The translations under genes and the position numbers were made by a program. Positions 1 to 17,292 of a stretch of DNA of 64,000 bases are shown piece by piece. Below the pieces are notes generated by a model. The model was given only the letters and a program-made list of their open reading frames with translations. It did not search any database and had not been told where the DNA came from. The stretch covers positions 9,899 to 73,898 of the forward strand of contig JAFTTS010000118.1 of NCBI GenBank assembly GCA_017466685.1. Reading direction: 5' to 3'. The DNA comes from Clostridia bacterium. GTDB taxonomy: Bacteria > Bacillota > Clostridia > Oscillospirales > CAG-272. Position 1 is the stretch's first letter; every line of letters starts with the position of its first letter.

Positions 1-419
1 TGTGGAAGATTATTATCATTATTATCATAATAAGTGCCGCCACCAATGCAAGCAGATACATTCCCGCACCGGAGGTAATACCGCTGGTTATCGCCCAGAA
101 AAGGTACAGAAGATCAAGCGGATCCTTGACTGCGGTTCTGAATCTTACGATAGAGAGCGCACCGACCATACCGAGCGAAATAACGATATTGGTGCTTATT
201 GCAAGCGTAACCATCGCGGTGAGTACAGTCATACCGACGAGCGTCACGGCAAAGCTTCGCGAATAAATAACGCCGACGTAAAATTTACTGTAAACCAAAT
301 AGATAACGGCACCCATTATAAGTGCACAAACAAGTCCGAGCGCGATATTTGTAAGGCTCGCGCCGTCAAACGCACCCGATTCCAAAATGGATTTCTTGAT
401 AAAATCTTGTATACTCATA
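1..419 (-). CDS. DUF4956-family membrane protein (start present, C-terminus runs off the window edge)
   Basis: It is absent from the ORF track because no stop lies in the window. My translation from ATG 419-417 (GGAGA about 7 nt upstream) reads MSIQDFIKKSILESGAFDGASLTNIALGLVCALIMGAVIYLVY...SLGMVGALSIVRFRTAVKDPLDLLYLFWAITSGITSGAG. This gives TM helices plus the SIVRFRTAxKDP core I associate with DUF4956. It begins 14 nt after the VTC gene stop. Confidence 0.75.
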
Positions 420-432
420 TGTTTATCTCCTG

Positions 433-1154
433 TCAATTTTCATACCAATATTTGAAGCTGTTCATATATTCGGTTTTCTCATAGCAGAGAACATATTTTG
501 AAACCGCCGTAAATTCCGATGCCCTGTCGGGAAGTATTTCGCGGACTATCTGCGGAAGGAACTCCGTGAATTTAACCTCCATAACGCATTTTCCGGGTTC
601 TAAAACAGGAAGCGCAGGCAATGTGGGATCGAATATATCGAAGCTTCCGATCGCCGCTCGCACGTCCGAGTCAAAGGTGATCCTGACTGTTCCCTCGTCA
701 ATTATCCACGGTTCACGCTCATAGTCAACAATAGTCCTCGGACGCATCACGTTGCTCATACATTCAAAGTAAAACTCGCGGCAAAGCGGCTTATCACTTT
801 TCAGAAGAAAATCATAACGCCGTCGAGTATCTTATATACCTCATCCTTTGTCAGCGAGGCGGATTCCTTGAATATATAGCTTCCGAACTTCTTTTTTCGC
901 TCGAGCTTGATACTGCTGTCCGAGCAGTCATATATGCGGATTCTGTATTTCTTTCGTCTGAGAACACCTGCGTCCTTTTCTTCATATGCCGAATTGTAAT
1001 AATCGTCAAAATAAAGACTTCTGAGCATATAACCGCCGTTTTTTGCGTGCTTGTCAAGCTTGAGTACAGGTGACAGACGGTTGCATATCGCTGCCTTTTG
1101 TGCCGTATCGATAAGATACTTCCATTCGTTTCGATAACGCTCAGTCTTCGACAT
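433..1154 (-). pseudogene. VTC-domain (polyphosphate polymerase-like) gene split by an apparent frameshift near 811-830
   Basis: ORFs 801..1154 (RYRNEWKYLI..., the VTC N-terminal signature) and 433..759 (RPRTIVDYEREPW...EVKF...) together make about 225 aa, the usual VTC length. The downstream frame is open back to a TAA at about 829-831 and reads ...YDFLLKSDKPLCREFYFECMSNVMRP, continuing the family sequence. A 1-nt indel between ILDG and YDFLL would restore one ORF. Confidence 0.6.
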
Positions 1155-2892
1155 ATGTATCCTCCACTATGCCGCCGTCAGCGTTGACATAGAAGCATCT
1201 TGTACCGTAAACTTTGCCGTTTTCCGTAATATAATAGTCAAACGCATACTGGCTGTTTCCGCTCTGATCCTTCGCCGAAACACGCATAAAATACTGTCCC
1301 TCGGGAAGAAGCTCAAACTCGACCGTCGGAATAACGATATCCTCTTTTTTGAAGATAACTTCACTGAAAGCACAGTCACGTGCAAGCTCAAAGGTGTAGG
1401 TTATATTCTCCGCATCAAAATCGTAAGAAGCTTCCCAATCAACCGTTATTTTGCCGTTTTTACTTGTCGGCGTTCCGATAAAGAACGGAAGCGGCTTTTC
1501 GAGCGATTCCTTGTAACGAAGATAATTCGCCTCAACCTCTGCAAAGCAGGCGTCTGCAACAATGTCATATTCCTCCTCGGTAAGCGGCGCATATATACTG
1601 TCAATTCCGCTGTACACGTAAGGTTTCAAAAGCTCGGAATATGTATTAACCATAGAATTTATACGCTCGGCATTCAGATATTCGCGAAGATCATTCATCG
1701 CGCCGTCAAGTGCCTCGCGGAACACCTCCGATTTAAGGCATCTTCTGAACAGTACATTTCCCCAATAATTGCTGACTCCGCTTTCCCATTCGCTGTAATC
1801 GCTTCGGTTGTTGACCTCATGCTCGGCACGCTTTAAGAGCGCATCGTTGTCCCATGCGAGGATATACCACCGTTCACTGTTGAGCGGACTGTACATATAG
1901 AAATTTCGGTTCTGCGTGTCAACGTTTCCGATAAGGATCTGGAATGCCATCCAGTATGCAATGTTTTCAATGTCAAAATGCTCGTTAAGAATATTCTCTA
2001 TCGGAATCGAATAATCGTTTATCTTTTCAAGCAGAGAGATAAGCTTTGTATGATCGTCGCTTCCCTTGGTTTCGAGTATCGCCTCAAAGGCGGCGGCATC
2101 GTATTCGGGATCGCTTGTGAGACGTATCTCATCCTCATATCTGTAAAACTCACAGACGTTTATCTTGTAAAGATGACCGTTTTTGTCAAGCCCGTGAGTC
2201 TTGAGTGCAGTTTTGTTGAGCTGCTCGACCTGGGTGTAAATTCCGTAATCCTCAAATTTTGCACCCTCACCCGAGGTTGTGTCCTTAACATAGAGGTGAA
2301 CAAAGGTCGTTCGCAGGCTCATAAGCTCATCAATTCCCGAAAGCAGATCAAAGCCGAGCTTGTTACGGAAGCGTAAACCGTCGCCCTGATGCTTGTTGAG
2401 TGCTATTGTCGTTTGCCCTCTCCAGTCGCCTTTATTGTCCTTTATGCTTATCTTGTAATTCTTCTGTGCATTAAGGCTGGAGCTCTGACCTCTTATCTGA
2501 ACGGTACAGTTAGGCGCAACCTGTCCGTAACCGAGCTCACCGGGAATGAGCCCATTTTCATCGCCGACCTGGATAAGTCCGGCAACCTTGTAACGGTCAA
2601 CTCCCATTCGCTCGTAATCGTAAACCGAATAGGTGTTTATCTCCTCCCAGGTGTGATCGGTGTTCTCCGCCGAGTTTCCCATAGAGACCGTCAGATACAT
2701 TGTAACGATTTCGGTATTATTCTGATTTTCATATAAAAGCGACTTATCACGGATGTGTATATCCTCCGAATCCGAGATTTCGGGAACGTCAACGCTTGTA
2801 CCGAGATCGGTGTTCACAGCCTCCTCACATCCGACATTACCGAGCAATATCGCAGACAGAAGTAAAACCGCCGCAAGCCTCTTTATCTTCAT
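1141..2892 (-). CDS. cotH: CotH-family atypical protein kinase, predicted lipoprotein
   Basis: 583 aa. Signal/lipobox MKIKRLAAVLLLSAILLGNVGC. CotH-like blocks ALNKHQGDGLRFRNKLGFDLL and NRNFYMYSPLNSERWYILAWDNDALL. The start ATG overlaps the pelG TGA (ATGA at 2889-2892). Confidence 0.85.
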   Translation of the reverse strand: MKIKRLAAVLLLSAILLGNVGCEEAVNTDLGTSVDVPEISDSEDIHIRDKSLLYENQNNTEIVTMYLTVSMGNSAENTDHTWEEINTYSVYDYERMGVDRYKVAGLIQVGDENGLIPGELGYGQVAPNCTVQIRGQSSSLNAQKNYKISIKDNKGDWRGQTTIALNKHQGDGLRFRNKLGFDLLSGIDELMSLRTTFVHLYVKDTTSGEGAKFEDYGIYTQVEQLNKTALKTHGLDKNGHLYKINVCEFYRYEDEIRLTSDPEYDAAAFEAILETKGSDDHTKLISLLEKINDYSIPIENILNEHFDIENIAYWMAFQILIGNVDTQNRNFYMYSPLNSERWYILAWDNDALLKRAEHEVNNRSDYSEWESGVSNYWGNVLFRRCLKSEVFREALDGAMNDLREYLNAERINSMVNTYSELLKPYVYSGIDSIYAPLTEEEYDIVADACFAEVEANYLRYKESLEKPLPFFIGTPTSKNGKITVDWEASYDFDAENITYTFELARDCAFSEVIFKKEDIVIPTVEFELLPEGQYFMRVSAKDQSGNSQYAFDYYITENGKVYGTRCFYVNADGGIVEDTYVED

Positions 2893-4346
2893 TTTGTCCT
2901 GTCCTCCAATTTATCCTCTAAAAATACGCCAAGACGGGTAAACATTCCCGATCTGTCCTCGGCGACAAGCGGCTGAACCGATAAAATATAATAAGGCAGC
3001 CGTTTGGTGAAATAATCGAGCCTTAATGTACACAACACAACAAAGATCATCGCCGCAAGCAAGAATCCGAAGCCGTAGAATACATACGGGAAGAAAAGCG
3101 AGATCACCGTGAAAATGACCGTCGTCGCCGCAAAAACGCCCGTGGTCAGCATTGCACCTCTGTAATCGGTGAAATAAAGAAGAATCAGCATCATCATGTT
3201 TCCGATGGCGTAAAGACCGTAGGCAACGCAGAGGGTTCTGAAATAACCGCGCATGATCTCGTTAAAGCCAAGCGGCAGAAGATCGAGCAGATATCCGCCG
3301 AGTGCAATACACGCCGCAGTGAAAAGAAGCTGCTTTAATGAGGTGTAAAAAATCTCTGTCTTAAGGGTTGTCAGCATTTCCTTTTCGGATTGCTTGATGT
3401 CGTTTATCGTTCCCTTGTCGTTATAAAGACTGTAATGATTGCGGTATTTCGGATAAAAATTGACCTCAACGGAAACAACAAAATTCACAGTTGTCATAAT
3501 CGCTGTCATAAAAGCAAGCAGTGCAGGAACATCATGCCACGGAGCACCGTAAAAAAGCCCGTGAACGCGGACACCGATATCCGAAAACCACATGATAACA
3601 AGATGCGAAAACATACCGATATTCATAAAAAGTCCCGAAAGTGCAAGCGGCAGAAATGCGTCTATCCACTTCATAAAGGTAAACGCTCCAAGCTTTGTGC
3701 TCGGGAAATATCGGTGAAGGAGTATAACATCCCAAATAAGCATCACGCCGTATCCGACTGTTACTGCCAAAAGAAGCGATTCGATGACGGGAAGCTCAAA
3801 GGCTATCATGATCGCACCGACGATGAAAGCAACCGCAACGGCACTCAAAAACGATAAAAATACACCCTTATAATCCTTTATCGCCGTCAGATAGCTCATC
3901 GCATTCCAGACGATACCAAGCTCACCGAAAAGCACGAAGCAGAGGAAGCCTTGCATAAATGTCGCGCCCGAGAATATGAGGAAAATTCCGTAAATAACAC
4001 TTCCGACCGCCATAATGATAACCGTCGAACCCCAGAATGATGGCAGCACCGCACCGTTATTTTCCTCAAAAAGCATATCGGCGACGTATCTTGTAACGAC
4101 CATCGAGAAAAACGATGATACACTGACCGAAAAAAGCAGCGTGTAGGTTATCATACAAATAAGCAGCTCACGCGAATAAACGTCAACTTTCGCAAACGAG
4201 CAAAGTACCATTATTCCAAGCAGTAAAACGACACCGAGCAGCATCGGACCTGCACAGATAACAGTCGCATATCCGTATGCCTTGGCGGAGTTAAGGACTC
4301 CCTTTTTAAGAAACAGCTTTTTTAATTCGAAGCCGATACCTGCCAC
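2889..4346 (-). CDS. pelG: Pel exopolysaccharide export/polymerisation membrane protein PelG
   Basis: 485 aa polytopic membrane protein. The N-terminus (M/V)AGIGFELKKLFLKKGVLNSAKAYGYATVICAGPMLLG matches the characteristic PelG start. GTG start with GAGGTGG 7 nt upstream. It overlaps the pelF end. Confidence 0.85.
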   Translation of the reverse strand: MAGIGFELKKLFLKKGVLNSAKAYGYATVICAGPMLLGVVLLLGIMVLCSFAKVDVYSRELLICMITYTLLFSVSVSSFFSMVVTRYVADMLFEENNGAVLPSFWGSTVIIMAVGSVIYGIFLIFSGATFMQGFLCFVLFGELGIVWNAMSYLTAIKDYKGVFLSFLSAVAVAFIVGAIMIAFELPVIESLLLAVTVGYGVMLIWDVILLHRYFPSTKLGAFTFMKWIDAFLPLALSGLFMNIGMFSHLVIMWFSDIGVRVHGLFYGAPWHDVPALLAFMTAIMTTVNFVVSVEVNFYPKYRNHYSLYNDKGTINDIKQSEKEMLTTLKTEIFYTSLKQLLFTAACIALGGYLLDLLPLGFNEIMRGYFRTLCVAYGLYAIGNMMMLILLYFTDYRGAMLTTGVFAATTVIFTVISLFFPYVFYGFGFLLAAMIFVVLCTLRLDYFTKRLPYYILSVQPLVAEDRSGMFTRLGVFLEDKLEDRTK

Positions 4347-5752
4347 TCGTTTTCCACCTCTTTATATAGATCTCTGTATTTTGTCAGCATGATGTGATAT
4401 CTGAAATATGTATATGCACGCTTCTGTCCGATCTCGCCCATTTTAAGCCGCAGCTCACGTGAATCGCAAAGCAGCTCCATCGCGTCCGCAAGCTTTTCTC
4501 TCTGCATCGGCGGAACAAAATATCCCGCTTTTCCGAGCGTATCGGATGGACCGCCGTTCAAAAGCTCGTTGCAGCATCCAACGTCCGTCGTAACACAAGG
4601 TCTGCGTGCCGCGAACGATTCAAGCACCGAAAGGGGTTGTCCCTCGGAAATACTTGTAAGCAGCGTAAAATCAAGCTTTTCAAAATATTCAATGATATTG
4701 ACACGTCCCGTGAATATGATCTTGTTTTCAAGTCCGAGCTGTTTTGTGAGCGCGTAACATTCGTCGGCATATTCCTGATCGTCAACACCGCCCATTATAT
4801 GCAGGCGCACGTTATCTTTTCTGCAGGAAAGCTCGAAAAAGGCATATATCATGGTCTTGATATCCTTGATCGGCGCAAGCCTTACAACCGCACCTATGTC
4901 AACGATACCGTCATCCTCTTTAAGCGGAATGTCACACAAACGCTCATAGCTGATACCGTTCTCGATAACTCTGCACCTTTCCGCTTTTGCCCCCATGTCG
5001 ATCTGCGTATGCATCGCACGTGTGAAAAGCGACGTGATACGAAATGCTCTGTCATACGTAAGATCGGAGAGCATATAGAAAAAGTCTATCCAGTGCGGCT
5101 TGAAGGCACGCGAAACCCATTTTGCGCGGATTATTTCTTCTTCACGTTCACGGGTATATATTCCGTGTTCGGTTAAAAGCATCGGCTTTTTGTTTATGTA
5201 TGCGCCCATCGAAGCGAGCATACCGCCGTAACCCGTACATATAGCATGATATACGTCCGCATCGGGAATCTCCGTACCCATCAGATAAAGCACCGGGAGA
5301 AGCCTTGAGCGAACCGAATGAAAAGCATCCGAAAAAGCGATGAACGGAAATTCCTTTTTGCAGGTTTCTGTAAGCGTTTCGAGGAAGCTTTCACTTTTAA
5401 GGTACGACATCGGATTTATCCGCTTAACCTGATACATATCAAAAAGCAGATCCCAATCGGGCTTATCGGAAGCAACGAGACGGCGCAGTGCCTCCTTTTC
5501 CTTTTCAGAGAAGGAGTGATGAAACACACCGCGATCCTTTACCCTCAGCGCATCGTCAAGGAAAACCTGATATACCTCCGAGACATTTTCGGGAAGCGTA
5601 TAAACAAACTTGTCCTTATCCTCAGCCTTCGCGCCGATAACCCAAAGGACAAATTCATGCTCGGGCATTTCGTTTATATATTGGTGCATCCAAGTGGAAA
5701 CACCGCCGTTTATATAGGGATAACAGCCTTCCAAAATCAAACAGATTCTCAC
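4322..5752 (-). CDS. pelF: Pel glycosyltransferase PelF (GT4 with DUF3492-type N-terminus)
   Basis: 476 aa. The N-terminus RICLILEGCYPYINGGVSTWMHQYI resembles the PelF signature LLEGTYPYVxGGVSSWVHQLI. The C-terminal half is GT4-like (SISEGQPLSVLESFAARRPCVTTDVG). GTG start with AGGAG 6 nt upstream. Confidence 0.88.
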   Translation of the reverse strand: MRICLILEGCYPYINGGVSTWMHQYINEMPEHEFVLWVIGAKAEDKDKFVYTLPENVSEVYQVFLDDALRVKDRGVFHHSFSEKEKEALRRLVASDKPDWDLLFDMYQVKRINPMSYLKSESFLETLTETCKKEFPFIAFSDAFHSVRSRLLPVLYLMGTEIPDADVYHAICTGYGGMLASMGAYINKKPMLLTEHGIYTREREEEIIRAKWVSRAFKPHWIDFFYMLSDLTYDRAFRITSLFTRAMHTQIDMGAKAERCRVIENGISYERLCDIPLKEDDGIVDIGAVVRLAPIKDIKTMIYAFFELSCRKDNVRLHIMGGVDDQEYADECYALTKQLGLENKIIFTGRVNIIEYFEKLDFTLLTSISEGQPLSVLESFAARRPCVTTDVGCCNELLNGGPSDTLGKAGYFVPPMQREKLADAMELLCDSRELRLKMGEIGQKRAYTYFRYHIMLTKYRDLYKEVENEWQVSASN

Positions 5753-5761
5753 AGTTGACTC

Positions 5762-7603
5762 CTATTTGAAGGATACCGTAACCGTTTGTTTATCTGCAAC
5801 AAGCAAATAAAGATCTCCCGTTAAATGGGTAAGTGTTCCGCCGGACACGGTATCGGGAATTTTAGTATTGAAGCGCACAAAGAGCTGTGCTTCATCATAG
5901 AAATTATCAAGTGTTATAATCATTTTGTCATCGTAGGTTTCACATTCGGGTGCAACCGCAACAAAACGCTGAACAGCCGCAGAAAGCTCCGAGCCGGTCA
6001 GATTTCGAAGTGACGGTGCACTGCCGTAAAGCCATGACAAAAACTCATTAAATTTCGCTTTCATAGTTTCCCATCCCAGCTCTGCACCGCGCTCCGGGTC
6101 AAGAGCATCGTCGGGATGAGTAAAATGATCATTGACAAAATGAAGATTCAACTCGGAAATTGCGGCTATCTTCATAAAATCGTTTATATCACAGCCCGAA
6201 ATTATACGCGGCTGATCGACGACACCGTTCTTTGCTGCATCAAACTCCTGAACCAGCGCAAAATCAAGCTGTGCATCCGGGAAATAGATACCCGAAAGAG
6301 TTTTGATCTGCGGATATTCCTTTATCAGAAATTCCCTGCCCTCTTTGGAAAGCAGATTTGACGGAGGAACGTAAACTGCCATCTCAACGTCGGGAAACAG
6401 CTCGTCACAGAAAGACTCCAGCTCATCAAAAGCCGTTTTCATCGCCGCATAGCTTTCCCAGGTTTTATATTCGTATATTCCCTTATAGTCGCAGTTGTCA
6501 AAGCAGAGCGGCTGGTGATTATATCCGTGGTAACCGATCTCCCCACCTTTGCGAAGAAGCATATTTCCGAAATTAAGAAATGTTCCCGTGTCGGGAGTTG
6601 CATTGATCGTACCGTCAACAGCATTGTCATAACATTCTATTGCAAGTCCCGTATATTTCATGCCGTATTTGTCGGCAAGGTTCATCATATCGGGCCACCA
6701 GATGTTTATGTAGAAATCACGTATGGTCGTGCTGTAATCGCGCTCGATATATTCACTGTTTCCGTCCGGTATCTGCGAGGGAAAATCGTCAAGATAAAAT
6801 GCAGAGCCGTTTATTACGGGGTACACGCAAACATCCGTGAGCAGACTGTACGATGCGGCATAAAAACCACGGAAGGCTTTGTCGTAAACTCCGATATTAG
6901 CAGCAACAAATACACCGTCACCGTAAACCTTTTTCCAGATAAGCGGCACACCGTCCACCTCGCTTGTTGCGGCGTAAACTGTAACACCGTCCTGTGAAAG
7001 CTGCAGTGTCCTTGCCGAATCAAAGCCATCGGGAATACCGAAGCTCTCACCGCCGCCGACCATAAAGTCGGGAAAAACGTAGATATTATCTACCGGATAA
7101 TACGACTCACCGCAGTCAACGATTCCGAGCTTGGCATCGACCACGGATGAATAAGGATTCGTCTCAAGCGTCAGTGGCAGATAAAGATTACCGCCGCCGT
7201 AAACCCAATCGCAAATTGATATAATACCCTCGCCAACCGGTGTCAGATCACTGAGAAGCAGGACTATAACCGTATAATCTTCAAAATCCGGTAACTTCTC
7301 CGTCGCAAGGTCAACGCAGTCACGTCCAACCTTCATGTCATCGAAAATAACCGTGAACTGACTGAAGATATCCCCGGCACCGGGCTCGTCACTGTTCCAT
7401 AAAACAAGCGTGTCTTTTTTGAGCGACGAACACGCTTCGCTTTTTGTAACGATTCTTTCCTCGGGCAAAAAATCAAGCTTCTTCGTGGTGTAATTAAACT
7501 GTATACCGTATAGCTCAACAAGCAGGATCAGCGAAATCAGCATAAATACAAGAACGATCACAATAACGCCCTTATATCTGAAATTCCGTATTGCCAATTT
7601 CAT
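5762..7603 (-). CDS. pelA: PelA-like polysaccharide deacetylase (DUF2194 type), membrane anchored
   Basis: N-terminal TM helix. It has a CE4-like metal/acid motif region (GYHGYNHQP) and sits between pelE and pelF, as the deacetylase-only PelA does in Gram-positive pel loci. I place the start at ATG 7603, which overlaps the pelE stop as ATGA. The ORF track starts 9 nt earlier at a TTG. Confidence 0.7.
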   Translation of the reverse strand: MKLAIRNFRYKGVIVIVLVFMLISLILLVELYGIQFNYTTKKLDFLPEERIVTKSEACSSLKKDTLVLWNSDEPGAGDIFSQFTVIFDDMKVGRDCVDLATEKLPDFEDYTVIVLLLSDLTPVGEGIISICDWVYGGGNLYLPLTLETNPYSSVVDAKLGIVDCGESYYPVDNIYVFPDFMVGGGESFGIPDGFDSARTLQLSQDGVTVYAATSEVDGVPLIWKKVYGDGVFVAANIGVYDKAFRGFYAASYSLLTDVCVYPVINGSAFYLDDFPSQIPDGNSEYIERDYSTTIRDFYINIWWPDMMNLADKYGMKYTGLAIECYDNAVDGTINATPDTGTFLNFGNMLLRKGGEIGYHGYNHQPLCFDNCDYKGIYEYKTWESYAAMKTAFDELESFCDELFPDVEMAVYVPPSNLLSKEGREFLIKEYPQIKTLSGIYFPDAQLDFALVQEFDAAKNGVVDQPRIISGCDINDFMKIAAISELNLHFVNDHFTHPDDALDPERGAELGWETMKAKFNEFLSWLYGSAPSLRNLTGSELSAAVQRFVAVAPECETYDDKMIITLDNFYDEAQLFVRFNTKIPDTVSGGTLTHLTGDLYLLVADKQTVTVSFK

Positions 7604-8475
7604 TTTTTCCAAAATGCGAGCGCCTCCTTTGCCGAAATATACGTTTTGTTATTTTCAACTTCCTCAATAAGCTTCCTTATCTGTGCGCCGTCACCGACTG
7701 ATGCAAGGTATTCAAGCTTTAAAAGTATGTATTCCTCGGTATCACGCCAGCTATAAGCCATTTCGTCAAGCGCCCTCTCTGCCTCAAAGTAATTTTTGCG
7801 CTTTAACTCGTTTTTGATAAGACGCGAATAATCGTTAATGTCACTGCTGTGCTCAAGCTTTTTGTTCATCAAGGTTGAGAAAAGCTCGCGGTTCAAAACC
7901 TCAACCTGTCCCTGCATGAGATTCTGCGAAAGACAGCTCCACAAAAACTCGGTATACTCGCAAAGCACATCGTTATCATCGGGATACAGCGAATACTTAC
8001 GCTCAAGCTCCTGCAGTCTGTAGTCATTTTCCTTTGAAATTTCGACCATCGCCGTCACCGCATAGTGAACGACCTCGGTGTCATCGTTATTGCCTGCTTT
8101 TTGAAGAAACTCAACATACTCCTTGGGATTATCATTGAGAACATCCATGATTATCGAACGTCGCTCTCCCGCAGAATTGATGAGAAGTGCTTCCTCAATC
8201 GGAACGGTCGAATCGGCAACCTTTTTGTCGTCAACGGTAACACTTTTGTAAAGCTCCGATTCAAGCTTCATTTTTTCAACGCCGACGTCGATACTGTCAT
8301 CGGCATCAAACGCAATCTGAAAATGCAGAATGAGCACAAGAAGCAATCCCCAGAACGGCAAAAGCAGGGATACAAAAAACATATATTTATGAACCTTCAG
8401 TATGCCGAGCCGTATTCCGAAAAAAACGAGCAGACAGCATACCAGGTGCAGTACCGCGAGGATAAGAAATAACAT
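7600..8475 (-). CDS. pelE: PelE-like protein (two N-terminal TM helices plus helical-repeat domain)
   Basis: 291 aa. It has two hydrophobic helices in the first 55 aa, then an alpha-helical repeat-like soluble part. Its position between pelD and pelA matches the pelDEA order. The assignment rests on architecture and synteny, not on a strong motif. Confidence 0.6.
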   Translation of the reverse strand: MLFLILAVLHLVCCLLVFFGIRLGILKVHKYMFFVSLLLPFWGLLLVLILHFQIAFDADDSIDVGVEKMKLESELYKSVTVDDKKVADSTVPIEEALLINSAGERRSIIMDVLNDNPKEYVEFLQKAGNNDDTEVVHYAVTAMVEISKENDYRLQELERKYSLYPDDNDVLCEYTEFLWSCLSQNLMQGQVEVLNRELFSTLMNKKLEHSSDINDYSRLIKNELKRKNYFEAERALDEMAYSWRDTEEYILLKLEYLASVGDGAQIRKLIEEVENNKTYISAKEALAFWKK

Positions 8476-8489
8476 TTTTAATTCATCCC

Positions 8490-11279
8490 TTAATGCAAAA
8501 TTGAAACCGTAATACCGAGAGACTCAAATCTCGGCAAAATAAAATCAAGATCCTTTTCTGTCGCCTGTGAGAGCAGAAGTCGCACTCTTCCGTTATCGGA
8601 TGCACCTAAAATATCGTTGGTACGAACCTTACCGATAAGCATCTGCTCTGCCTGTCCATAGCTCTTTTCGCCAAAGTCAAGCTCTAAGAGAACATACAAG
8701 GAAACCTTTCTCTCGGCAAGACTTTCGAAATTTGCAAGAGCTTCGTCAAATGCCTCTTTATTCATGATGTGAGTATTCTCGATGTACTGCTTATCGTGAA
8801 CTGCGCTGTTATAGTCGTATGCACGAAGCAGTGACATCTCGGCAAGGTCACGCAGTATCTTAAAGAGATTGACATAATAGAGCGAGCGCTGATCGGCATC
8901 CGCGTGCCATAAGAATATCACAAGCACAAGCTTACCGCCTCTGCGAACACCTGCCGCATACATCGGAAAATCGGGAATAAGCTCGGTGTTTCGCCAGATC
9001 TCACCCTCGTCAAGCTCTTTGATAACGGGTGCGTATGTATCGGTTGAGATCGAACGCGAAACGCTTGCGATAATATCACGCGAAGCAACCTCAAGTCTGC
9101 CGAACGCACTGTTCTCGGTGACAGAATAAACAGTGATATTTTTATTCTCGAGAACCGTCTCAAAGGTGTCCATAATACGAAGATAAAGCTGATGAGGCTC
9201 GACTGTGTTAAGCTTTCTTGTTATATCAAAGATCTTACCGAAGCTGTCCTTTGAACCGATGATCTGCTTTTTGAGATCGCGTTTTTCACGGAAGGTGTCC
9301 TCATAAAGCTCACGTGTGAATACCAGCTTGTCTTCAAGAAGCTTGTTCTGCTCATTAACAAAGGCGATCTTGTCGTCATATTTAAGCTTGATATAACCGC
9401 ACAGTGCGCCGACAAGGAAGAAGAACACAAAAGCCAGCCAGTTCGTCGGCTCATAGAAGATCGTCAGCGGATTTGTTCCCGAAGCGACCTTCGCAAAGAA
9501 CCACGACACACTACTGAGCGCAGATGCGGCAATTCCGAAATAGAGTCCGTGAGTTGTACCCATGACAACGATATAGACCATTCTGAAATCAACGATTGAG
9601 AAGATCACCGCCGAATCGGTTATATGCAGGAAAAATTCGGTTATTATAAAGAGCAAAAACAGCTCGATTATTTTTACGATACGTGTATGCCGAGCGAGGA
9701 AGCTTTTGATTTTGTCAAAGAGCGTAAGAGTTTTTTCGTTCCTTGCTTCGAGGAAGCGTGTATATTCCTCGGAGAGATTTTCAAGTATGGAAATCTTCGA
9801 AAACCAACCGTATTCATTTCGTAGTGCTTTATTGTTAACGGCTAAAGTCTTTGATGGCACACTACCCTGAAAATCGAATTTCACGTCATCACATAGAGTT
9901 GTAAGTCCATCTGCAAGATCATCGAAAGTAAGACCAAAATCATCGTTAACGGTCATAATACCGCTTCCCGAATTCCAGTTGTCCATGATTCTCGCGACAA
10001 GCTCCGCAAGGTCACACATCGATAAGAAATACATCCTTGAAGTCGCACTCTCGGCAAGCTCCACCGTTTCTCCATCATGCATCCGCTCAAAGATACGGTA
10101 AAGGAAATCACGCTTATCGACTCCCGAATAAAGGTACGGAATCTGCACCGTTTTAATGTCGAGCGATTTTTCCTTGGCGTAATATTCGCAGAGCCTTTCC
10201 TTTGCTGCGGACAGCACTGCTTTATCGGTCTGCGGTGTAAGCGAGGAATCGAGCGAGGCAAGATACAGCACCCTCATATCGGGATTCTTCTCCGAGGCAC
10301 ATTCAAGAACCTCACGAAACTCCTCCGAATCGCTTTTTTCGGTGGAATCATATGTAAGCTCACCCGAAAAATACACAACCGCATCAAAATCGTATGTATC
10401 AAAAACAGCCTGTACAGACGGCTTTTTTATCTTGAAAAGCTTGATTTTTGTATTTGTGTCAAGCTCTGTGTTTCCAACAACGGTAACCTTGCTCGTCGAG
10501 AACGCGGTTTCGATAAATTCACGTGTCAGATACTGCGTATTTCCGATGCACAAAACACGTCCGGGAAGCGTACTTCCGTGATCGTTTACAACAGCGCGTC
10601 GAAGATCAAGCTTTTCACGCAGGGACACAAGAGTTTTGTGATTGACAACCTTCATAAGCGCATCAAGCAAGGTCTCGTCAAAAACTCCGCACATACCGCT
10701 TGATATCATCTGCACCGCGGCATCCTGTGAAATCGCTTCCTTATAGCTTCGTGAGCTTGTGAGTGCATCATAGGAATAGGCAAGCGCAACGACCTGTGCA
10801 CTGATCGGAACATCATCACCGCGAGCACCGTCCGGATAACCCGTGCCGTCAATACGTTCATGGTGAGCTCGTGCGATCTCGGCGGCATATTTTTTAATAA
10901 GCGGATCGATATCACCAAAATCGGTTTCGTTTATTATATTCTCGCCGAATACCGAGTGCTTTTTAACGATATCGTATTCAAGCGGCGAGAGCTTTCCCGG
11001 GTAATCGAGAATACTTTTCGGGATCTGCGATTTTCCGATGTCATGAAGCGATGACGCTATGGCTATGGCGTTTATATGCTCTTCGCCAAGCTCATGCACA
11101 GTACCGTCTTCGACAAGCTGACGCAGAAGCAGCTCGGTCATCATTCTGACTCGGTAAACATGAAAACCGCTTTCACCGTTAAGAGTTTCCGGAATGGCAT
11201 TATCGGTTATATATTCAATTTTCAAGGTGAATACGTCGCCCGACATATCCATGACCAAAACCGGATTCCCCTGATTCAT
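8490..11279 (-). CDS. pelD: PelD-like c-di-GMP receptor with extra N-terminal HD-GYP domain (HD-GYP / degenerate Rossmann-like / 4 TM / GAF / degenerate GGDEF)
   Basis: 929 aa. The domain order is:
- aa 40-215: HD-GYP, with H40xxRV, SLHDIGK (nt 11040-11045) and HHERIDGTGYP (nt 10833-10865).
- aa 240-520: an epimerase/SDR-like fold lacking a clean GxxGxxG.
- aa 535-640: four TM helices.
- C-terminus: a GAF-like region and a GGDEF-like domain with RTND (RxxD I-site, nt 8613-8624) followed by a degenerate SDNGR in place of GGDEF. Confidence 0.8.
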   Translation of the reverse strand: MNQGNPVLVMDMSGDVFTLKIEYITDNAIPETLNGESGFHVYRVRMMTELLLRQLVEDGTVHELGEEHINAIAIASSLHDIGKSQIPKSILDYPGKLSPLEYDIVKKHSVFGENIINETDFGDIDPLIKKYAAEIARAHHERIDGTGYPDGARGDDVPISAQVVALAYSYDALTSSRSYKEAISQDAAVQMISSGMCGVFDETLLDALMKVVNHKTLVSLREKLDLRRAVVNDHGSTLPGRVLCIGNTQYLTREFIETAFSTSKVTVVGNTELDTNTKIKLFKIKKPSVQAVFDTYDFDAVVYFSGELTYDSTEKSDSEEFREVLECASEKNPDMRVLYLASLDSSLTPQTDKAVLSAAKERLCEYYAKEKSLDIKTVQIPYLYSGVDKRDFLYRIFERMHDGETVELAESATSRMYFLSMCDLAELVARIMDNWNSGSGIMTVNDDFGLTFDDLADGLTTLCDDVKFDFQGSVPSKTLAVNNKALRNEYGWFSKISILENLSEEYTRFLEARNEKTLTLFDKIKSFLARHTRIVKIIELFLLFIITEFFLHITDSAVIFSIVDFRMVYIVVMGTTHGLYFGIAASALSSVSWFFAKVASGTNPLTIFYEPTNWLAFVFFFLVGALCGYIKLKYDDKIAFVNEQNKLLEDKLVFTRELYEDTFREKRDLKKQIIGSKDSFGKIFDITRKLNTVEPHQLYLRIMDTFETVLENKNITVYSVTENSAFGRLEVASRDIIASVSRSISTDTYAPVIKELDEGEIWRNTELIPDFPMYAAGVRRGGKLVLVIFLWHADADQRSLYYVNLFKILRDLAEMSLLRAYDYNSAVHDKQYIENTHIMNKEAFDEALANFESLAERKVSLYVLLELDFGEKSYGQAEQMLIGKVRTNDILGASDNGRVRLLLSQATEKDLDFILPRFESLGITVSILH

Positions 11280-11362
11280 AAGTCTTCCCCTTTAAATGTA
11301 TATAAATTATATAAATTCCAATATTATACAAAAACTATCCATAATAATATCCCTATTTTATT

Positions 11363-11391
11363 ATTATAGCAAATTTTTTCAGAAAATGCAA
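11363..11391 (-). promoter_or_regulatory. Sigma-A-type promoter upstream of pelD
   Basis: On the minus strand this reads TTGCAT-17 nt-TATAAT (TTGCATTTTCTGAAAAAATTTGCTATAAT). It lies about 85 nt upstream of the pelD ATG and downstream of the trxB terminator. Confidence 0.55.
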
Positions 11392-11410
11392 CATTTATTT
11401 CAATATTGTT

Positions 11411-11464
11411 AAAACAAAAAGAACTGCCCCACGACACCAAAAACGTGCCTGAAAAAACAGTTCT
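11411..11464 (-). terminator. Hairpin terminator after trxB
   Basis: The minus strand reads AGAACTG...CAGTTCT (arms at 11458-11464 and 11420-11426), with an inner CACG/CGTG pairing, followed by TTTTGTTTT. Confidence 0.5.
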
Positions 11465-11476
11465 CTCTTAGTAATT

Positions 11477-12403
11477 TTATAAATCCAATCCCGCCAGATA
11501 TTCCTCTGCGAAATGAACCGCGACAGCACCGTCACTAACGGCAGTCACAACCTGACGCAGTGGCTTTGTCCTGACGTCGCCGACAGCGTAAACACCCTCG
11601 ATATTTGTCCTTGTCGTTTCGTCTGCCACGATGTAACCGTTTTCGTCGAGAATAAGCTCATCCGAAAAAAGCTCCGATGCAGGTTTTCGTCCGATACTGA
11701 CAAACAATCCGTCAAAATGAAGTTCTTTTTCCTCACCGCTCTTGAGATTCTTCAGCTTCGCGCCGGTAAGCTTCCCGTCAACGATATAATCATAAACGGC
11801 ACTATCCCATATAAATTCGACATTTTCAGCTTTAATAAGCGGTGCATGATATATTTTAGTCGCTCTCAAATTATCTCTGCGATGTATCAGATAAACCTTT
11901 TTTGCAAGATGCGAAAGATAAAGTGCATCCGCCGCGGCACTGTTTCCGCCGCCGACAACGGCAACCGTTTTGTCTTTGTAAAACCGTCCGTCACAGTGTG
12001 CACAGTAGTGAAGTCCCTTGCCGATAAGTGATTTGTCGCCGTCAAGACCAAGCTCCCTTGGATTTGCACCTGTAGCAATAACCACGGTGTATGCCGAAAG
12101 CTCTCCCGATGCAGTGAAAATCCGTTTTATCTTCCCTGAAAGCTCCACTCTCTCAACCGAGGTATACTCCGTCTTTGAACCGAAACGCTCGGCACCTGCC
12201 TGCATTTTCATACCGAGTGTGAAGCCGTCAACACCCTCATCAAAGCCGGGATAATTGTCTATAGTCCCCGTGAGCGCCATCTGACCGCCGACCGACATTT
12301 TTTCTATAACGAGTGTATCAAGTCCGGCACGTGATGCATAAAGTGCCGCAGTATATCCCGCCGGACCGCCGCCGATGATTATCATATTATAAATATGCTC
12401 CAT
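11477..12403 (-). CDS. trxB: Thioredoxin-disulfide reductase
   Basis: 308 aa. FAD motif IIIGGGPAGYTAALYASRAGL. Redox centre CAHCDG (the usual form is CATCDG). NADPH motif GGGNSA...HRRDNLRA. RBS AAAGGAG. Confidence 0.92.
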   Translation of the reverse strand: MEHIYNMIIIGGGPAGYTAALYASRAGLDTLVIEKMSVGGQMALTGTIDNYPGFDEGVDGFTLGMKMQAGAERFGSKTEYTSVERVELSGKIKRIFTASGELSAYTVVIATGANPRELGLDGDKSLIGKGLHYCAHCDGRFYKDKTVAVVGGGNSAAADALYLSHLAKKVYLIHRRDNLRATKIYHAPLIKAENVEFIWDSAVYDYIVDGKLTGAKLKNLKSGEEKELHFDGLFVSIGRKPASELFSDELILDENGYIVADETTRTNIEGVYAVGDVRTKPLRQVVTAVSDGAVAVHFAEEYLAGLDL

Positions 12404-12479
12404 TACGGTTCTCCTTTAATCGTTTTGCAATAGAGGTAATACCGGAAGCTGAACGAAGCGGATAAAACGTCTCGCCAAG

Positions 12480-12788
12480 TCAATCCTCTAAGAGCGCAAG
12501 AATCTGCACCTTCGGCATTGCACCGACAGCCTGATTTGCAACCTTACCATTTTTAAGAACAACGAGCGTCGGAATGCTCATAACGCCAAACTCGCCTGCG
12601 ATTTCCGGCTCATCGTCAACATTGATCTTTCCGACAACGATATCGTCACGCTCCTCGGCGATCTCGTCAACAAGAGGCGAAACCATACGGCAAGGACCGC
12701 ACCATTCCGCATAAAAATCGAGCAGCACGGGCTTATCGCTTCCTTTGATCGAATCGAAATTAGTTTTGTTTACACTGATAACAGCCAT
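12480..12788 (-). CDS. trxA: Thioredoxin
   Basis: 102 aa with the WCGPC active site and typical length. RBS AAAGGAG. Confidence 0.93.
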   Translation of the reverse strand: MAVISVNKTNFDSIKGSDKPVLLDFYAEWCGPCRMVSPLVDEIAEERDDIVVGKINVDDEPEIAGEFGVMSIPTLVVLKNGKVANQAVGAMPKVQILALLED

Positions 12789-12912
12789 TTTTATATCTCC
12801 TTTTGCGTTTATTTTTTTATATTTATATTTTATCGATTTTTCACGCGTTCATTCCTGAATTAAGCCGCATGAAATGAATATCACGGAATCGCTGCTATTG
12901 TACCACATAATT

Positions 12913-12941
12913 ATTATAACACAATCGATTATATATGTCAA
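12913..12941 (-). promoter_or_regulatory. Sigma-A-type promoter for trxA (long leader)
   Basis: The minus strand reads TTGACA-17 nt-TATAAT with a TG extension (TTGACATATATAATCGATTGTGTTATAAT). It implies a 5' UTR of about 115 nt. Confidence 0.55.
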
Positions 12942-13004
12942 TCACTCCCATCCCGAAAAAGAGTTTTTTGCCCGATTCAGGGACAAACGCAAGGACTGTG
13001 GGAT

Positions 13005-13033
13005 TTGAATGTCACGGAAAAATATGTTAAAAT
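13005..13033 (+). promoter_or_regulatory. Sigma-A-type promoter for the Mor-like/AIM24 operon
   Basis: TTGAAT-17 nt-TAAAAT with an upstream TG (TTGAATGTCACGGAAAAATATGTTAAAAT). Confidence 0.5.
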
Positions 13034-13056
13034 GGTAAAGCATGAGAAAGGCAGTG

Positions 13057-13332
13057 ATGACGATGGACAATTCCAAAGAATCAGAGCTCTTTAATGAAGT
13101 CTACAAAGAAATCTGCTCTGAAATGGGACTTGATGCGGCAATAAAAATCTACCGGTTGTTCAAAGGTCAGCAGATAACCTTCCCCGTGCATTTATTCAAC
13201 TCCAAACGCATCGGGAGCAGTATCATCAAGGAATATGACGGCACGAATATCCGTGAATTATCAAAAAAATACGGTTATTCGGAAAAGACAATACGGCGTA
13301 TGATACGCGAGAGATTGGCGGATGTGGAGTAA
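13057..13332 (+). CDS. Mor-family-like small HTH DNA-binding protein
   Basis: About 91 aa. The pattern GQQITFPV...YDGTNIRELSKKYGYSEKTIRRMIRE resembles the Mor transcription activator family (G.qiyiP ... G.N..eLA.kY.lS...IyrIi). The ORF track starts at 13042. I prefer ATG 13057 because GAAAGG lies 5 nt upstream and the predicted transcription start is about 13040. Confidence 0.6.
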   Translation: MTMDNSKESELFNEVYKEICSEMGLDAAIKIYRLFKGQQITFPVHLFNSKRIGSSIIKEYDGTNIRELSKKYGYSEKTIRRMIRERLADVE

Positions 13333-13370: not shown

Positions 13371-14237
13371 ATGGCAATTCAAATGGGCAACTGGATCAAC
13401 GACAATCGTAAGGTCATCTCATCACTCGGAAGCTTCAAGGTTATTGAGCACCAGAAGGATCTCAGCGTCAGTCATTTAACTGCACAGAACGAATATTTTC
13501 TCTCGCAGATGAATGTCAAGTTGAGACAGGTTGAGATCGAGCTTAACGGAAGCAACACGGTTAAAACCCAGGCAGGCGCAATGCAGATGATGCTCGGTAA
13601 TATAGAAATGGCAACCGGCGTCACAGGAGCAAAGGGCTTCCTCGGTTCAATGCTCAAGGCGGCAGTAACAAGCGAATCCGCGGTGAAGCCCGAATATTCC
13701 GGTGTCGGACAGGTTATTCTCGAGCCGACATACAAGCACATCATACTTCAGGATGTCAGCGCATGGGGAGCCGGCGGCCTTGTTATTGAGGACGGTATGT
13801 TTTTGGCAAGCGAAGGAAGTGTTCAGCATAACGTCGTTGAAATATCAAATGACGTGGCAACCACACTTCTGAGCGGAGAGGGACTTTACAATCTCTGCTT
13901 CACGGGTTCGGGCGCTGTTGCACTTGAAAGCTATGTGCCGTTTGAAGAACTTATTGAAATTAATTTGCAGGACGATGTACTGAAAATTGATGGAAACATG
14001 GCAGTCTGCTGGAGCGGTTCACTTAAGCTGACAGTTGAAAAGACCACAAAGAGTCTGCTTGGCTCGCTTGCAAGCGGTGAGGGACTTGTTAACGTTTACA
14101 GAGGCACGGGAAAGGTTTGGGTAAGCCCTGTAGCCGGAACAAAGAAGAGTTCACCTCAAACAGCCAATAACGGCAGCAGCACAGATAAAGATGCAAAATC
14201 AAGCGGCGGCGGTTTACTCGGTGCACTTTTAGGCTAA
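13371..14237 (+). CDS. AIM24-family protein (DUF124/TIGR00266-like)
   Basis: 288 aa. A beta-rich sequence with LSGEGLYNLCFTGSGAVALES and GEGLVNVYRGTGKVWV, typical of AIM24-family proteins. RBS AAAGGAG. Confidence 0.75.
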   Translation: MAIQMGNWINDNRKVISSLGSFKVIEHQKDLSVSHLTAQNEYFLSQMNVKLRQVEIELNGSNTVKTQAGAMQMMLGNIEMATGVTGAKGFLGSMLKAAVTSESAVKPEYSGVGQVILEPTYKHIILQDVSAWGAGGLVIEDGMFLASEGSVQHNVVEISNDVATTLLSGEGLYNLCFTGSGAVALESYVPFEELIEINLQDDVLKIDGNMAVCWSGSLKLTVEKTTKSLLGSLASGEGLVNVYRGTGKVWVSPVAGTKKSSPQTANNGSSTDKDAKSSGGGLLGALLG

Positions 14238-14270
14238 TTAATATTCATTCATTACGGAGGAAAATCAATT

Positions 14271-14729
14271 ATGGAACTTATTAAAAAATACAAAAATTAT
14301 ATCATCATTGCTCTTTGTGCCCTCGCACTTATCTCTCTGTTTCTGCCAATGGCAACGATCACTGCGGAAAACGAATATGCCGATTCTTCCCAGTCTGTCA
14401 CCGGATTCACGATCGCCTTCTCGAGATACTACCCGATCCTGCTGATCCTCGGTCCGATAGCACTCGCCATTTCCGAGTATCTGCCTCAGCTCAAGCCTTA
14501 TAAGAAGATACTCACTCTCGCAGTGCCGGTTGTTTGCATAATCATAACCGTGATTTCATTGCTTACGGCTTCAAGTGTGGCAAGTGCGTTTGACAGTGAA
14601 TATGCAGATGTGTCCTCAAGCATCGGAATCGGTGCAATACTCGGTATCATTGCCCATCTCGGAATCGGCATCCTCGGCTTCCTCGATAATAAGGAAGAGA
14701 TCATGGAGCTGACCAAAAAATCGAAGTAA
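14271..14729 (+). CDS. Hypothetical integral membrane protein
   Basis: 152 aa with about four hydrophobic helices. RBS GGAGGA 8 nt upstream. I recognise no family. Confidence 0.6.
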   Translation: MELIKKYKNYIIIALCALALISLFLPMATITAENEYADSSQSVTGFTIAFSRYYPILLILGPIALAISEYLPQLKPYKKILTLAVPVVCIIITVISLLTASSVASAFDSEYADVSSSIGIGAILGIIAHLGIGILGFLDNKEEIMELTKKSK

Positions 14730-14771
14730 TACTTATAAATTAATCACATTTCTCGTCAATACCCCCGCTTG

Positions 14772-14812
14772 ACGCTCCCCATCAAAATTACGGTGAGGAG
14801 CGTTGTTTTATT
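14772..14812 (+). terminator. Hairpin terminator after the membrane-protein gene
   Basis: ACGCTCC (14772-14778) pairs with GGAGCGT (14797-14803), followed by TGTTTTATT. The loop is rather long. Confidence 0.45.
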
Positions 14813-14821
14813 CCCCGTTAC

Positions 14822-14855
14822 AACAAAAAAGCCTCGGCACCGTAATACCAAGGCT
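14822..14855 (-). terminator. Hairpin terminator after the aminotransferase gene
   Basis: On the minus strand AGCCTTGG...CCGAGGCT (8 bp, one mismatch) is followed by TTTTTTGTTG. Confidence 0.6.
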
Positions 14856-14875
14856 TGTGTATAACTTATGTAAGC

Positions 14876-16174
14876 TTATTTGATGTTTCTCTTGAAAACA
14901 GGATTTACTCTTGCGCCCTCGGAAAGGATTCCGTCAACGCTGTCCTTGTCGATCGCTTTTCTGATCTCTGCGAATGCACAGTCAGCCGCATCAAGGAACT
15001 TCTTAACATCGTCCTCGGTGTGTGAGAACGAAATGTTTGTGATTGCCTGGCAGAGGATGCCGTTTTCGAGCATATTCTTCGCATAAATAGAATGAATATC
15101 AAGATAGTTAAGCGAACCGACATCATCGAATGCAACACCGCAGTGAGCCGCAAGACCACTGACCGAAACAGCCGCACCGACGCCGTGCTTTTCAACTCTC
15201 TCCTTGAGTCCCTCGAGAATCATTGTACCGAGCTTCCAAGCGTGTCCCATAACGTCCTTTTCCTGCATTTCCTTAATGGTTGCAAGTGCGCCTGCCATAG
15301 AAATTGCATCGCCGCCGAAGGTCATTGAAACGAATACACCCTGCTCAATAAGGCTGATGATCTCTCTCTTACCTGCAACGAACGAGAGCGACATACCGTT
15401 TGCACAGCCCTTACCGTAGGATGCCATATCGGGAGTTACACCGTAATATTCGCTTGCACCGCCGATTGCATATCTGAAGCCGCTTACAACCTCGTCGAAG
15501 ATTGCAACAGCACCATGCTTGTGTGCGGTATCGATCACAGCCTGGAGATATTCCTTGGTTGTGCCGTTTGACTGGATCGGCTCCATAATAACAGCAGCAT
15601 ATTCGCCGGGATGTGCAGCGAGAAGATTTTCAAGCGAAGCGATATCGTTATACTTGAAGGTCTTGGTAAGCTCACAAACTGCCTTCGGTACACCCTTGTT
15701 GTTTGCAGAAGCACCGATCGACCAGTCGTGCATACCGTGGTAACCGCACATTGCAACGCGCTCACGTCCGGTGTATGCTCTTGCAAGTCTGATTGCAGCA
15801 GTTGTAGCGTCACTTCCGTTTTTAACGAACTTTACCATCTCTGCACAGGGGATAACTTCAACGAGCTTTTCTGCGAGCTCACACTCAACGGGAGCCTGAG
15901 TTGAGAAAATGATACCCTTGTTAAGCTGTTCCATAACAGCCTTGTTTACTGCGGGATAATTGTAACCGAGAGTGATCGGGCCGAGGCAGCAGATAAAGTC
16001 GATAAATTCGTTTCCGTCAACGTCGTATACTCTTGCGCCTTCCGCATGATCGATAAACATAGGTGCCGCGCCGGGCATGAAATAACGATAGCTCTTACTG
16101 AAGGTCTGTGCCGCGAGAGGAGCTACCTTCTTCTCTCTTTCAATGAGTGCATTGCTTTTTTCAAAAGATCTCAT
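14876..16174 (-). CDS. Class-III (GSA-aminomutase-like) PLP-dependent aminotransferase
   Basis: 432 aa. HemL-like layout with KNGSDATTAAIRLARAYTGR, IFDEVVSGFR and the Lys-containing SYGKGCANG. RBS AAGGAG. Confidence 0.8.
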   Translation of the reverse strand: MRSFEKSNALIEREKKVAPLAAQTFSKSYRYFMPGAAPMFIDHAEGARVYDVDGNEFIDFICCLGPITLGYNYPAVNKAVMEQLNKGIIFSTQAPVECELAEKLVEVIPCAEMVKFVKNGSDATTAAIRLARAYTGRERVAMCGYHGMHDWSIGASANNKGVPKAVCELTKTFKYNDIASLENLLAAHPGEYAAVIMEPIQSNGTTKEYLQAVIDTAHKHGAVAIFDEVVSGFRYAIGGASEYYGVTPDMASYGKGCANGMSLSFVAGKREIISLIEQGVFVSMTFGGDAISMAGALATIKEMQEKDVMGHAWKLGTMILEGLKERVEKHGVGAAVSVSGLAAHCGVAFDDVGSLNYLDIHSIYAKNMLENGILCQAITNISFSHTEDDVKKFLDAADCAFAEIRKAIDKDSVDGILSEGARVNPVFKRNIK

Positions 16175-16339
16175 AACTGATTCTCCTTGGTTTGTTTTTT
16201 ATTTTATTATATAGGAAAATCTGTGATATTACAACGAGCATTTTATTCGTTTTTTTAAGAAAAAATGATCGATTTTTTGGATTTATATTGATTTTTTGCT
16301 TAAATTCTGATATAATTGAAAAAAAGGAGCGTGATATGT

Positions 16340-17209: not shown

Positions 17210-17221
17210 GCTCAGGAAAAT

Positions 17222-17290: not shown

Positions 17291-17292
17291 TA

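Follow-up and report, generated by a model that had tools for sequence, protein, structure and literature searches.

A probable ten-gene Pel operon with cotH, VTC, and DUF4956 genes in an uncultured gut Clostridium, and a second genomic setting for the accessory trio

Two published studies describe the systems closest to the locus examined here. In Whitfield et al. (2020; PMC7112168), cotH, a poly-phosphate polymerase gene, and genes for DUF4956 and DUF4832 proteins are contiguous with pelDEA_DAFG in streptococci and clostridia (S4 Fig), a diguanylate cyclase/phosphodiesterase (DGC/PDE) gene takes the place of DUF4832 in bifidobacteria (S5 Fig), the accessory genes correlate with an epimerase-like N-terminal domain of PelD, and the idea is raised that CotH might regulate Pel via phosphorylation. 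In a second study (mBio 2025; PMC12345266), each of the four accessory genes of Streptococcus intermedius was deleted; loss of cotH left the cells with less Pel and loss of DUF4956 with more, and aggregation of both mutants in artificial sputum medium was reduced by more than 50%. Here we analyze a stretch of 64,000 nucleotides (nt) from a Clostridia bacterium (GenBank assembly GCA_017466685.1, contig JAFTTS010000118.1, positions 9,899 to 73,898; referred to below as the window). It very probably carries, at its left end, most of a ten-gene Pel operon of the pelDEA_DAFG-cotH-VTC-DUF4956 variant, belonging to an uncultured gut Clostridium of Oscillospirales type. We refer to cotH, VTC, and DUF4956 together as the trio.

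The locus is a new example of this published operon class and as such changes little. S. intermedius has the same order, pelD-E-A_DA-F-G-cotH-VTC-DUF4956 (SIR_1594, CotH; SIR_1593, polyphosphate polymerase; SIR_1592; SIR_1591, glycoside hydrolase; PMC12345266), and, like the window, it encodes a secreted CotH with a C-terminal FN3 domain, a DUF4956 protein that combines four transmembrane (TM) helices with a cytoplasmic domain, and a PelD with a degenerate SDR domain. However, the streptococcal PelD lacks the GGDEF/RxxD receptor part and the organism has no cyclic di-GMP (c-di-GMP) signaling, whereas the window PelD has an RxxD motif and a fused HD-GYP domain. Moreover, in the window genome, two GGDEF-type genes end the operon, so that its last gene is not DUF4832, and VTC is frameshifted. 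The clostridial and bifidobacterial operons of PMC7112168 share with the window a trio contiguous with pelDEA_DAFG and an epimerase-like PelD N terminus, and the bifidobacterial variant likewise ends in a DGC/PDE gene rather than in DUF4832; the window operon additionally has a second (dCache-GGDEF) gene and the HD-GYP domain on PelD. Bacillus cereus ATCC 10987 has the same five core genes in the same order and a PelD that is a c-di-GMP receptor via an RxxD I-site, but it lacks cotH, VTC, and DUF4956, carries divergently transcribed pelA_H and galE genes, and has a PelD without SDR-like and HD-GYP domains; the absence of the trio from bacilli is taken here from the literature. A preliminary description of the window, made from its sequence, had presented the link between pel and the trio as undescribed. 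That link had been published in PMC7112168 and partly tested by deletions in PMC12345266, and two of the three checks proposed in that description (a genome survey of the linkage, transcript analysis across the pelG-cotH junction, and deletion of cotH or VTC) are already in print.

The listing of open reading frames (ORFs) together with family searches confirmed that eight consecutive minus-strand genes, from pelD to DUF4956, lie within the window (Table 1). All seven junction spacings given in the preliminary description were exact on re-measurement: a 14-nt gap between pelD and pelE, an ATGA overlap of pelE and pelA at 7603-7600, a 9-nt gap between pelA and pelF, a 25-nt overlap of pelF and pelG, an ATGA overlap of pelG and cotH at 2892-2889, a 14-nt overlap of cotH and VTC, and a 14-nt gap between VTC and DUF4956. 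Every start in the eight-gene string has a plausible Shine-Dalgarno sequence. For pelA, the spacing from AGGAGG is more favorable for an alternative start codon, TTG at 7612, than for the ATG at 7603, and with the TTG the overlap with pelE is 13 nt; both candidate starts overlap pelE. The pelG product has multiple predicted TM segments and is identical to a database protein (P0001), and PelA_DA has a predicted N-terminal TM segment at residues 16-34. The pelE-like product, for which searches of Pfam and NCBIfam gave no family model, has predicted TM helices at residues 1-19 and 32-50 followed by a helical soluble part, and its position is filled by a homologue in all 55 loci with room for it in the genome survey described below. 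By analogy with characterized Pel systems, the operon would direct the synthesis of a Pel-like exopolysaccharide rich in N-acetylgalactosamine: PelF would polymerize the sugar in the cytoplasm, PelD, PelE, and PelG would form a membrane complex, and PelA_DA would deacetylate the polymer outside the cell.

Table 1. Genes and candidate transcription signals of the pel cluster and its upstream flank (window coordinates)
Feature	Position	Strand	Basis
pelD variant, 929 aa	8490..11279	-	Pfam HD_5 3.5e-25, HD 5.6e-11, Epimerase 1.7e-5
pelE-like, 291 aa	7600..8475	-	Position and TM helices; no Pfam or NCBIfam match
pelA_DA, DUF2194, membrane-anchored polysaccharide deacetylase-like	5762..7612	-	PF09960 471 bits, 5.5e-141; DUF2334 1.1e-6
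pelF, GT4 glycosyltransferase	4322..5752	-	NCBIfam NF038011 equivalog 315.9 bits (cutoff 100); DUF3492 and Glycos_transf_1
pelG, polytopic membrane exporter component	2889..4346	-	PF16933 439 bits (cutoff 29), full-length match
cotH, predicted lipoprotein	1141..2892	-	PF08757 238 bits
VTC (triphosphate-tunnel, polyphosphate-polymerase-like), split in two ORFs	433..1154	-	PF09359 in two halves
DUF4956, 5' part (139 of 223 codons), cut by window edge	1..418	-	PF16316 6.9e-9
Candidate sigma-70-type promoter, TTGCAT-17 nt-TATAAT, TGc extended -10	11363..11391	-	Read from sequence
Intrinsic terminator hairpin and U-tract after trxB	~11412..11468	-	Folding versus shuffles

The unit does not end with DUF4956, since two GGDEF-type genes and a terminator lie past the window edge. 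Apart from one synonymous mismatch, the window is identical to the metagenome scaffold ENA ERZ28653963 scaffold_255 (129 kb; L001). The mismatch lies in pelG at window position 3500, with A in the window and C in the public contig; it is classed as synonymous because the PelG proteins are identical. On L001, DUF4956 is full length (13929-14600, 223 aa) and the operon continues through 14593-18322, beyond the left edge of the window. An 8-nt overlap joins DUF4956 to a PAS-GGDEF-EAL gene (696 aa), in whose product no canonical GGDEF motif was found; next comes a dCache-HAMP-GGDEF gene (519 aa) with a canonical GGDEF at residue 438, after which a strong canonical intrinsic terminator hairpin closes the unit. 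The operon thus comprises ten genes, most of them inside the window.

At the other end, the candidate pel promoter sits in the sole sizeable noncoding gap of the cluster (11280-11476). The preliminary description had named it as the single recognizable promoter of the unit. The sequence is present, with its TGc extended -10, but matches of this class occur at chance frequency (23 observed versus 22.9 expected in shuffled sequence), and so its function can only be proposed from its sequence and position. The terminator that follows trxB folds with a dG of -22.7 kcal/mol (z, -3.83; 0/200 shuffles fold as well) and is followed by UUUUUGUUUU; it isolates the pel cluster from the trxA-trxB unit upstream, so that the cluster requires a promoter of its own within the 11280-11411 gap. 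The trx genes (trxA, 12480-12788; trxB, 11477-12403) lie upstream on the same strand. Their promoter, at 12941-12913, is a perfect TTGACA-17-TATAAT with TG, a terminator of their own lies at ~11468-11412, and we place them outside the pel unit because the pel cluster of the closest relative has different neighbors. A scan found a terminator-like site at no internal junction of the cluster, in agreement with the preliminary description; such matches were in modest excess (19 versus 12.8 expected; standard deviation, 3.7). Internal terminators and promoters were considered and rejected, as the scan matches fall within coding sequence and none fall at junctions. A riboswitch or leader RNA upstream of pelD was likewise rejected: no relevant Rfam family appeared in 1-13200 at E values up to 1, the sole match being a chance snoRNA inside pelG, and at the gathering score the whole window yielded tRNAs only.

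The linkage of pel and the trio is not confined to one lineage. We scanned one genome per GTDB species with a 13-sequence CotH alignment (a 60-sequence alignment was too diverse); this CotH subfamily was present in at least 597 genomes. Conservation was tabulated with phmmer for the best 80 CotH-centered loci of these at least 597 genomes, with counts given where the contig has room. The linkage counts start from CotH; the PelG search listed only matches of at least 80% identity. The gene pelG lies directly upstream of cotH in 71/71 loci, VTC lies downstream of cotH in 75/75, DUF4956 does so in 69/69, and the complete set of five pel genes occurs in 55/55; intergenic space is near zero across all of the tabulated pel-cotH loci. 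Hosts include Oscillospiraceae, Acutalibacteraceae, "Ca. Flemingiibacterium," Pseudoflavonifractor, Blautia, Roseburia, Faecalibacterium prausnitzii, Eubacterium, and many Collinsella, so that gene order is invariant across many Firmicutes families and Collinsella. One relative, GCA_017502135.1 (PelG, 82% identity), shares all ten genes with the window operon, set in other genomic surroundings. The HD-GYP domain on PelD and the two terminal GGDEF-type genes occur only in the Oscillospirales-like group nearest the window; in the Lachnospiraceae and Faecalibacterium relatives, DUF4832 is the terminal gene instead of the GGDEF-type genes. A functional link between pel and the trio, as the preliminary description had suggested, is thus supported, in that cotH and DUF4956 deletions alter Pel in S. 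intermedius; the hypothesis of regulation or modification via phosphorylation that went with it is already present in the published papers.

In three 50%-identity cluster representatives (P0121, P0155, and P0156), one polypeptide contains a full PelG domain and, after it, CotH. They retain a lipobox-like segment at the junction, and fusion of PelG and CotH was found in 0/80 genome loci, so they may be gene-calling or frameshift artifacts of the ATGA junction. For the same reasons, we rejected the fusions as a Rosetta-stone argument, for which they are weak evidence.

The trio also occurs away from pel. A Faecalibacterium genome (L054) carries, 2.4 kb past its pel cluster, another copy of the trio arranged as VTC-DUF4956-CotH. 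When the CotH of this copy was used to scan metagenome contigs, 80 loci (L087-L166) were collected, and these revealed a second cassette, VTC-DUF4956-CotH-X724-HEAT-GT2, in which the order through X724 (a protein without a family) is constant (L054, 14209-20336; L111, 8615-16148). Its hosts are Faecalibacterium-type human gut contigs. Of the 26 second-cassette loci whose contigs reach at least 8 kb upstream, 25 have no pel gene nearby; in each of the 57 loci with room, the next genes encode a HEAT-repeat protein with a membrane anchor and a GT2 with multiple TM segments. Among NCBIfam models this GT2 matches PgaC/IcaA best, at 144 bits, which is below the equivalog cutoff, and the CotH of the cassette has an N-terminal signal anchor. 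One contig, L097, is an apparent recombinant joining the pel-linked trio to the second cassette. A search of the literature library available to us turned up no description of the second cassette. The cassette supports the earlier statement that the trio recurs in Clostridia, and it qualifies the statement in PMC12345266 that the arrangement is not found outside Pel loci, with the reservation that its gene order differs. Since the trio stands beside two unrelated synthase-type exopolysaccharide systems, a common target (the exported polymer or the matrix) is favored over the Pel proteins, and these loci suggest that the trio is a portable module serving synthase-type exopolysaccharides.

The same distribution bears on the view that the trio has a role of its own, in polyphosphate or phosphate homeostasis or in cell envelope modification, and is merely coregulated with pel, with no direct biochemical link to it. 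The location of the trio away from pel in 25/26 second-type loci agrees with this view, as do the occurrence of DUF4956 alone in Bacteroides and S. mutans gene lists, the lack of a Pel phenotype upon VTC deletion, and the broken VTC gene of the window. However, the trio abuts or overlaps synthase-type exopolysaccharide genes without exception (71/71 and 57/57), and deletions of cotH and DUF4956 alter both Pel amount and aggregation; we thus regard an independent role as improbable.

The PelD encoded in the window consists of an HD-GYP domain, a degenerate SDR/epimerase-like domain, about four TM segments (predicted within residues 534-632), and a putative C-terminal receptor region with an RxxD motif. 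The profile of the family matches SDR epimerases with E values down to 4e-9, and the RxxD residues (R886/D889) are invariant in 12 diverse orthologues. The HD-GYP domain occupies residues 1-240 (window 10560-11279) and has the motifs HDIGK ... HHERIDGTGYP; since the latter is intact, the phosphodiesterase domain is probably active. This domain is present on PelD in 22 of the 66 genome loci in which PelD was recovered. All of its carriers are metagenome-assembled genomes or isolates labeled Oscillospiraceae, Acutalibacteraceae, Eubacteriales, or other Clostridia; Blautia, Faecalibacterium, and Collinsella lack the domain. In one Blautia genome (L033, 43-2187), a separate gene for a GGDEF and HD-GYP protein lies directly upstream of pelD. 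In the text of PMC7112168, HD-GYP appears only generically, and no PelD with this domain is described. As in characterized Pel systems, binding of c-di-GMP to the RxxD site of PelD would switch the Pel complex on, and the signal would probably be shaped locally by the HD-GYP domain on PelD, the PAS-GGDEF-EAL protein, and the dCache-sensor diguanylate cyclase.

The trio proteins themselves suggest how the module might be laid out across the membrane. CotH has a signal peptide with the lipobox LLGNVGC (Cys22; family consensus, LxGC), and its sole hydrophobic segment is N-terminal. A single-sequence search of the PDB with CotH gave no match, and a profile was needed; the family profile matches B. 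cereus CotH (5JD9) at 4.5e-31, and at the C terminus it matches FN3 domains, including those of titin. The catalytic-loop Asp/Asn and the metal-binding Asp have D325, N330, and D348 as their aligned counterparts here, and 48, 51, and 59 of 60 family members, respectively, share these residues. The B. subtilis CotH mutations D228Q and D251A are inactivating (PMC7821199), and by alignment offset the corresponding residues of the window CotH would map to these positions. The kinase active site thus appears intact and its predicted location is extracytoplasmic. Like Bacillus CotH (5JD9), the protein has the kinase fold and the catalytic Asp/Asn/Asp; Bacillus CotH, however, targets the coat proteins CotB and CotG within the cytoplasm of the mother cell, whereas the window CotH carries a signal peptide of the lipoprotein type and an additional FN3-like domain and is encoded in a polysaccharide operon.

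With VTC as well, a single-sequence search of the PDB returned no relevant match (a chance match to PBP2x had an E value of 0.11) and a profile was needed. The orthologue profile matches yeast Vtc4 (3G3Q) at 1e-4, and a set of tunnel Arg/Lys/Glu residues is invariant among the orthologues. The protein lacks TM segments and further domains; in particular, neither a DUF202-type membrane channel nor an SPX sensor was found on it by Pfam searches and TM prediction. It thus resembles the yeast VTC complex in its VTC domain with tunnel Arg/Lys/Glu residues and in the pairing of a cytoplasmic catalytic domain with a membrane protein, but, unlike the eukaryotic proteins, it lacks SPX and DUF202 TM domains, and its membrane partner would be the unrelated, MgtC-like DUF4956. 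DUF4956 has four predicted TM helices and a cytoplasmic C-terminal domain; a DUF4956 paralogue gave a weak MgtC match. With CotH predicted to lie outside and VTC in the cytoplasm, the question arises of which phosphoryl donor serves outside the cell.

We tentatively propose, at somewhat less than even confidence, that the trio is a trans-membrane phosphorylation module. CotH would act as a lipid-anchored extracytoplasmic kinase, VTC as a cytoplasmic enzyme, and DUF4956 as a 4-TM membrane protein, and phosphoryl groups would pass from the cytoplasmic tunnel enzyme via the membrane partner to the kinase outside. Its target would be either the polysaccharide as it is being made or a partner outside the cytoplasm, and the modification would adjust the amount of Pel retained on the cell. 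A broader form of this proposal, which we hold to be a long shot, is that the trio is a portable three-part trans-membrane phosphorylation machine for synthase-dependent hexosamine exopolysaccharides generally: polyphosphate or a different phosphoryl donor would be synthesized by VTC and carried through the membrane by the MgtC-like DUF4956, and the lipid-anchored CotH would use it outside the cell to phosphorylate the emerging polymer, which would be Pel here and the PgaC/IcaA-type product in the second cassette. If true, such a machine would give bacteria an equivalent of the eukaryotic VTC complex coupled with a sugar kinase of the secretory-pathway kind.

The nature of CotH also invites the hypothesis of Whitfield et al. 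2020, in which CotH regulates the Pel machinery by protein phosphorylation (for example, of PelA_DA or of extracytoplasmic parts of PelD, PelE, or PelG) rather than by modifying the polymer, with VTC and DUF4956 only supplying phosphate or energy. All characterized CotH enzymes are Ser/Thr protein kinases (PMC7821199), the decrease of Pel in the cotH mutant and its increase in the DUF4956 mutant have a regulatory look, the C-terminal FN3-like domain of CotH is a typical protein interaction module, and three cluster representatives are annotated as PelG-CotH fusions. Those fusions, however, are perhaps artifacts, given their junction lipobox and the count of 0/80 loci, and CotH is predicted to lie outside the membrane, where ATP is scarce. 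Moreover, the same trio stands beside an unrelated PgaC/IcaA-like GT2 cassette without Pel proteins, which makes a Pel-protein-specific target unlikely. We therefore consider regulation by protein phosphorylation rather unlikely and continue to favor, tentatively, the trans-membrane module.

VTC had been described as one ORF, but in the window it is split by a 1-nt deletion between 818 and 817. Positions 2-111 of the Pfam model match ORF 801-1154, whose frame stops at 803-801, and positions 124-232 match in a different frame, 433-816; the two halves score 58.7 and 50.2 bits (cutoff, 23). In a DNA alignment with intact 240-aa VTC orthologues (L004 and L005), the window reads GACGGCG-TTATGAT versus GATGGCGACTACGAA. 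The deletion site is neither homopolymeric nor slippery, and VTC is intact in all of the 80 pel-linked loci other than the source contig itself. A programmed frameshift was considered and rejected, because GACGGCG/TTATGA contains no slippery sequence and each orthologue is encoded in a single frame. The break is either a recent pseudogene, in which case the polymerase step would be lost, or a 1-nt metagenome assembly error. In another metagenome assembly of the same strain (L002, 8413-9780), pelF is split into two ORFs, which suggests error-prone assemblies or strain-level gene decay in the pel cluster.

If the break is genuine, the accessory module would be decaying in the window genome, with VTC a true pseudogene and cotH, VTC, and DUF4956 no longer a working unit. 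We see this as a serious possibility, albeit one that falls short of even chances. The deletion lies at a non-homopolymer site, and this is the sole split VTC gene among the pel-linked (first-type) loci examined. However, both halves are otherwise conserved, without further stops or indels and with high protein identity to orthologues, cotH and DUF4956 are intact, and single-base assembly errors are plausible because pelF is split in another assembly of this strain.

Several points weigh against our overall reading of the locus as a c-di-GMP-controlled Pel operon with a trans-membrane phosphorylation module. To our knowledge, polyphosphate synthesis or movement has been demonstrated for no bacterial VTC-domain or DUF4956 protein, and we know of no CotH substrate in Pel systems. 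The GAF/GGDEF fold of the PelD C terminus was not confirmed by sequence (weak GGDEF matches had E values of ~0.6-0.8), and the receptor fold is unconfirmed because a PelD profile run against the PDB did not recover P. aeruginosa PelD. Cotranscription of the pel genes and the trio is suggested by their spacing and by the lack of internal terminators, and the VTC gene is broken in the window copy. Finally, deletion of VTC in S. intermedius gave no aggregation phenotype, so the polymerase may be dispensable; the hydrolase mutant likewise had no phenotype (PMC12345266).

Two modest new leads emerge from this analysis, namely, the fusion of HD-GYP to PelD and the second trio cassette. Together with the two operon-encoded c-di-GMP enzymes, the fusion provides a compact model of how gut Clostridia might exert second-messenger control locally. 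The occurrence of the trio beside a PgaC/IcaA-like GT2 cassette points to the exported polymer or the matrix as the target. This occurrence, the fusion, and the prediction of an extracytoplasmic CotH in both the pel and the second-cassette contexts may help in the design of experiments.

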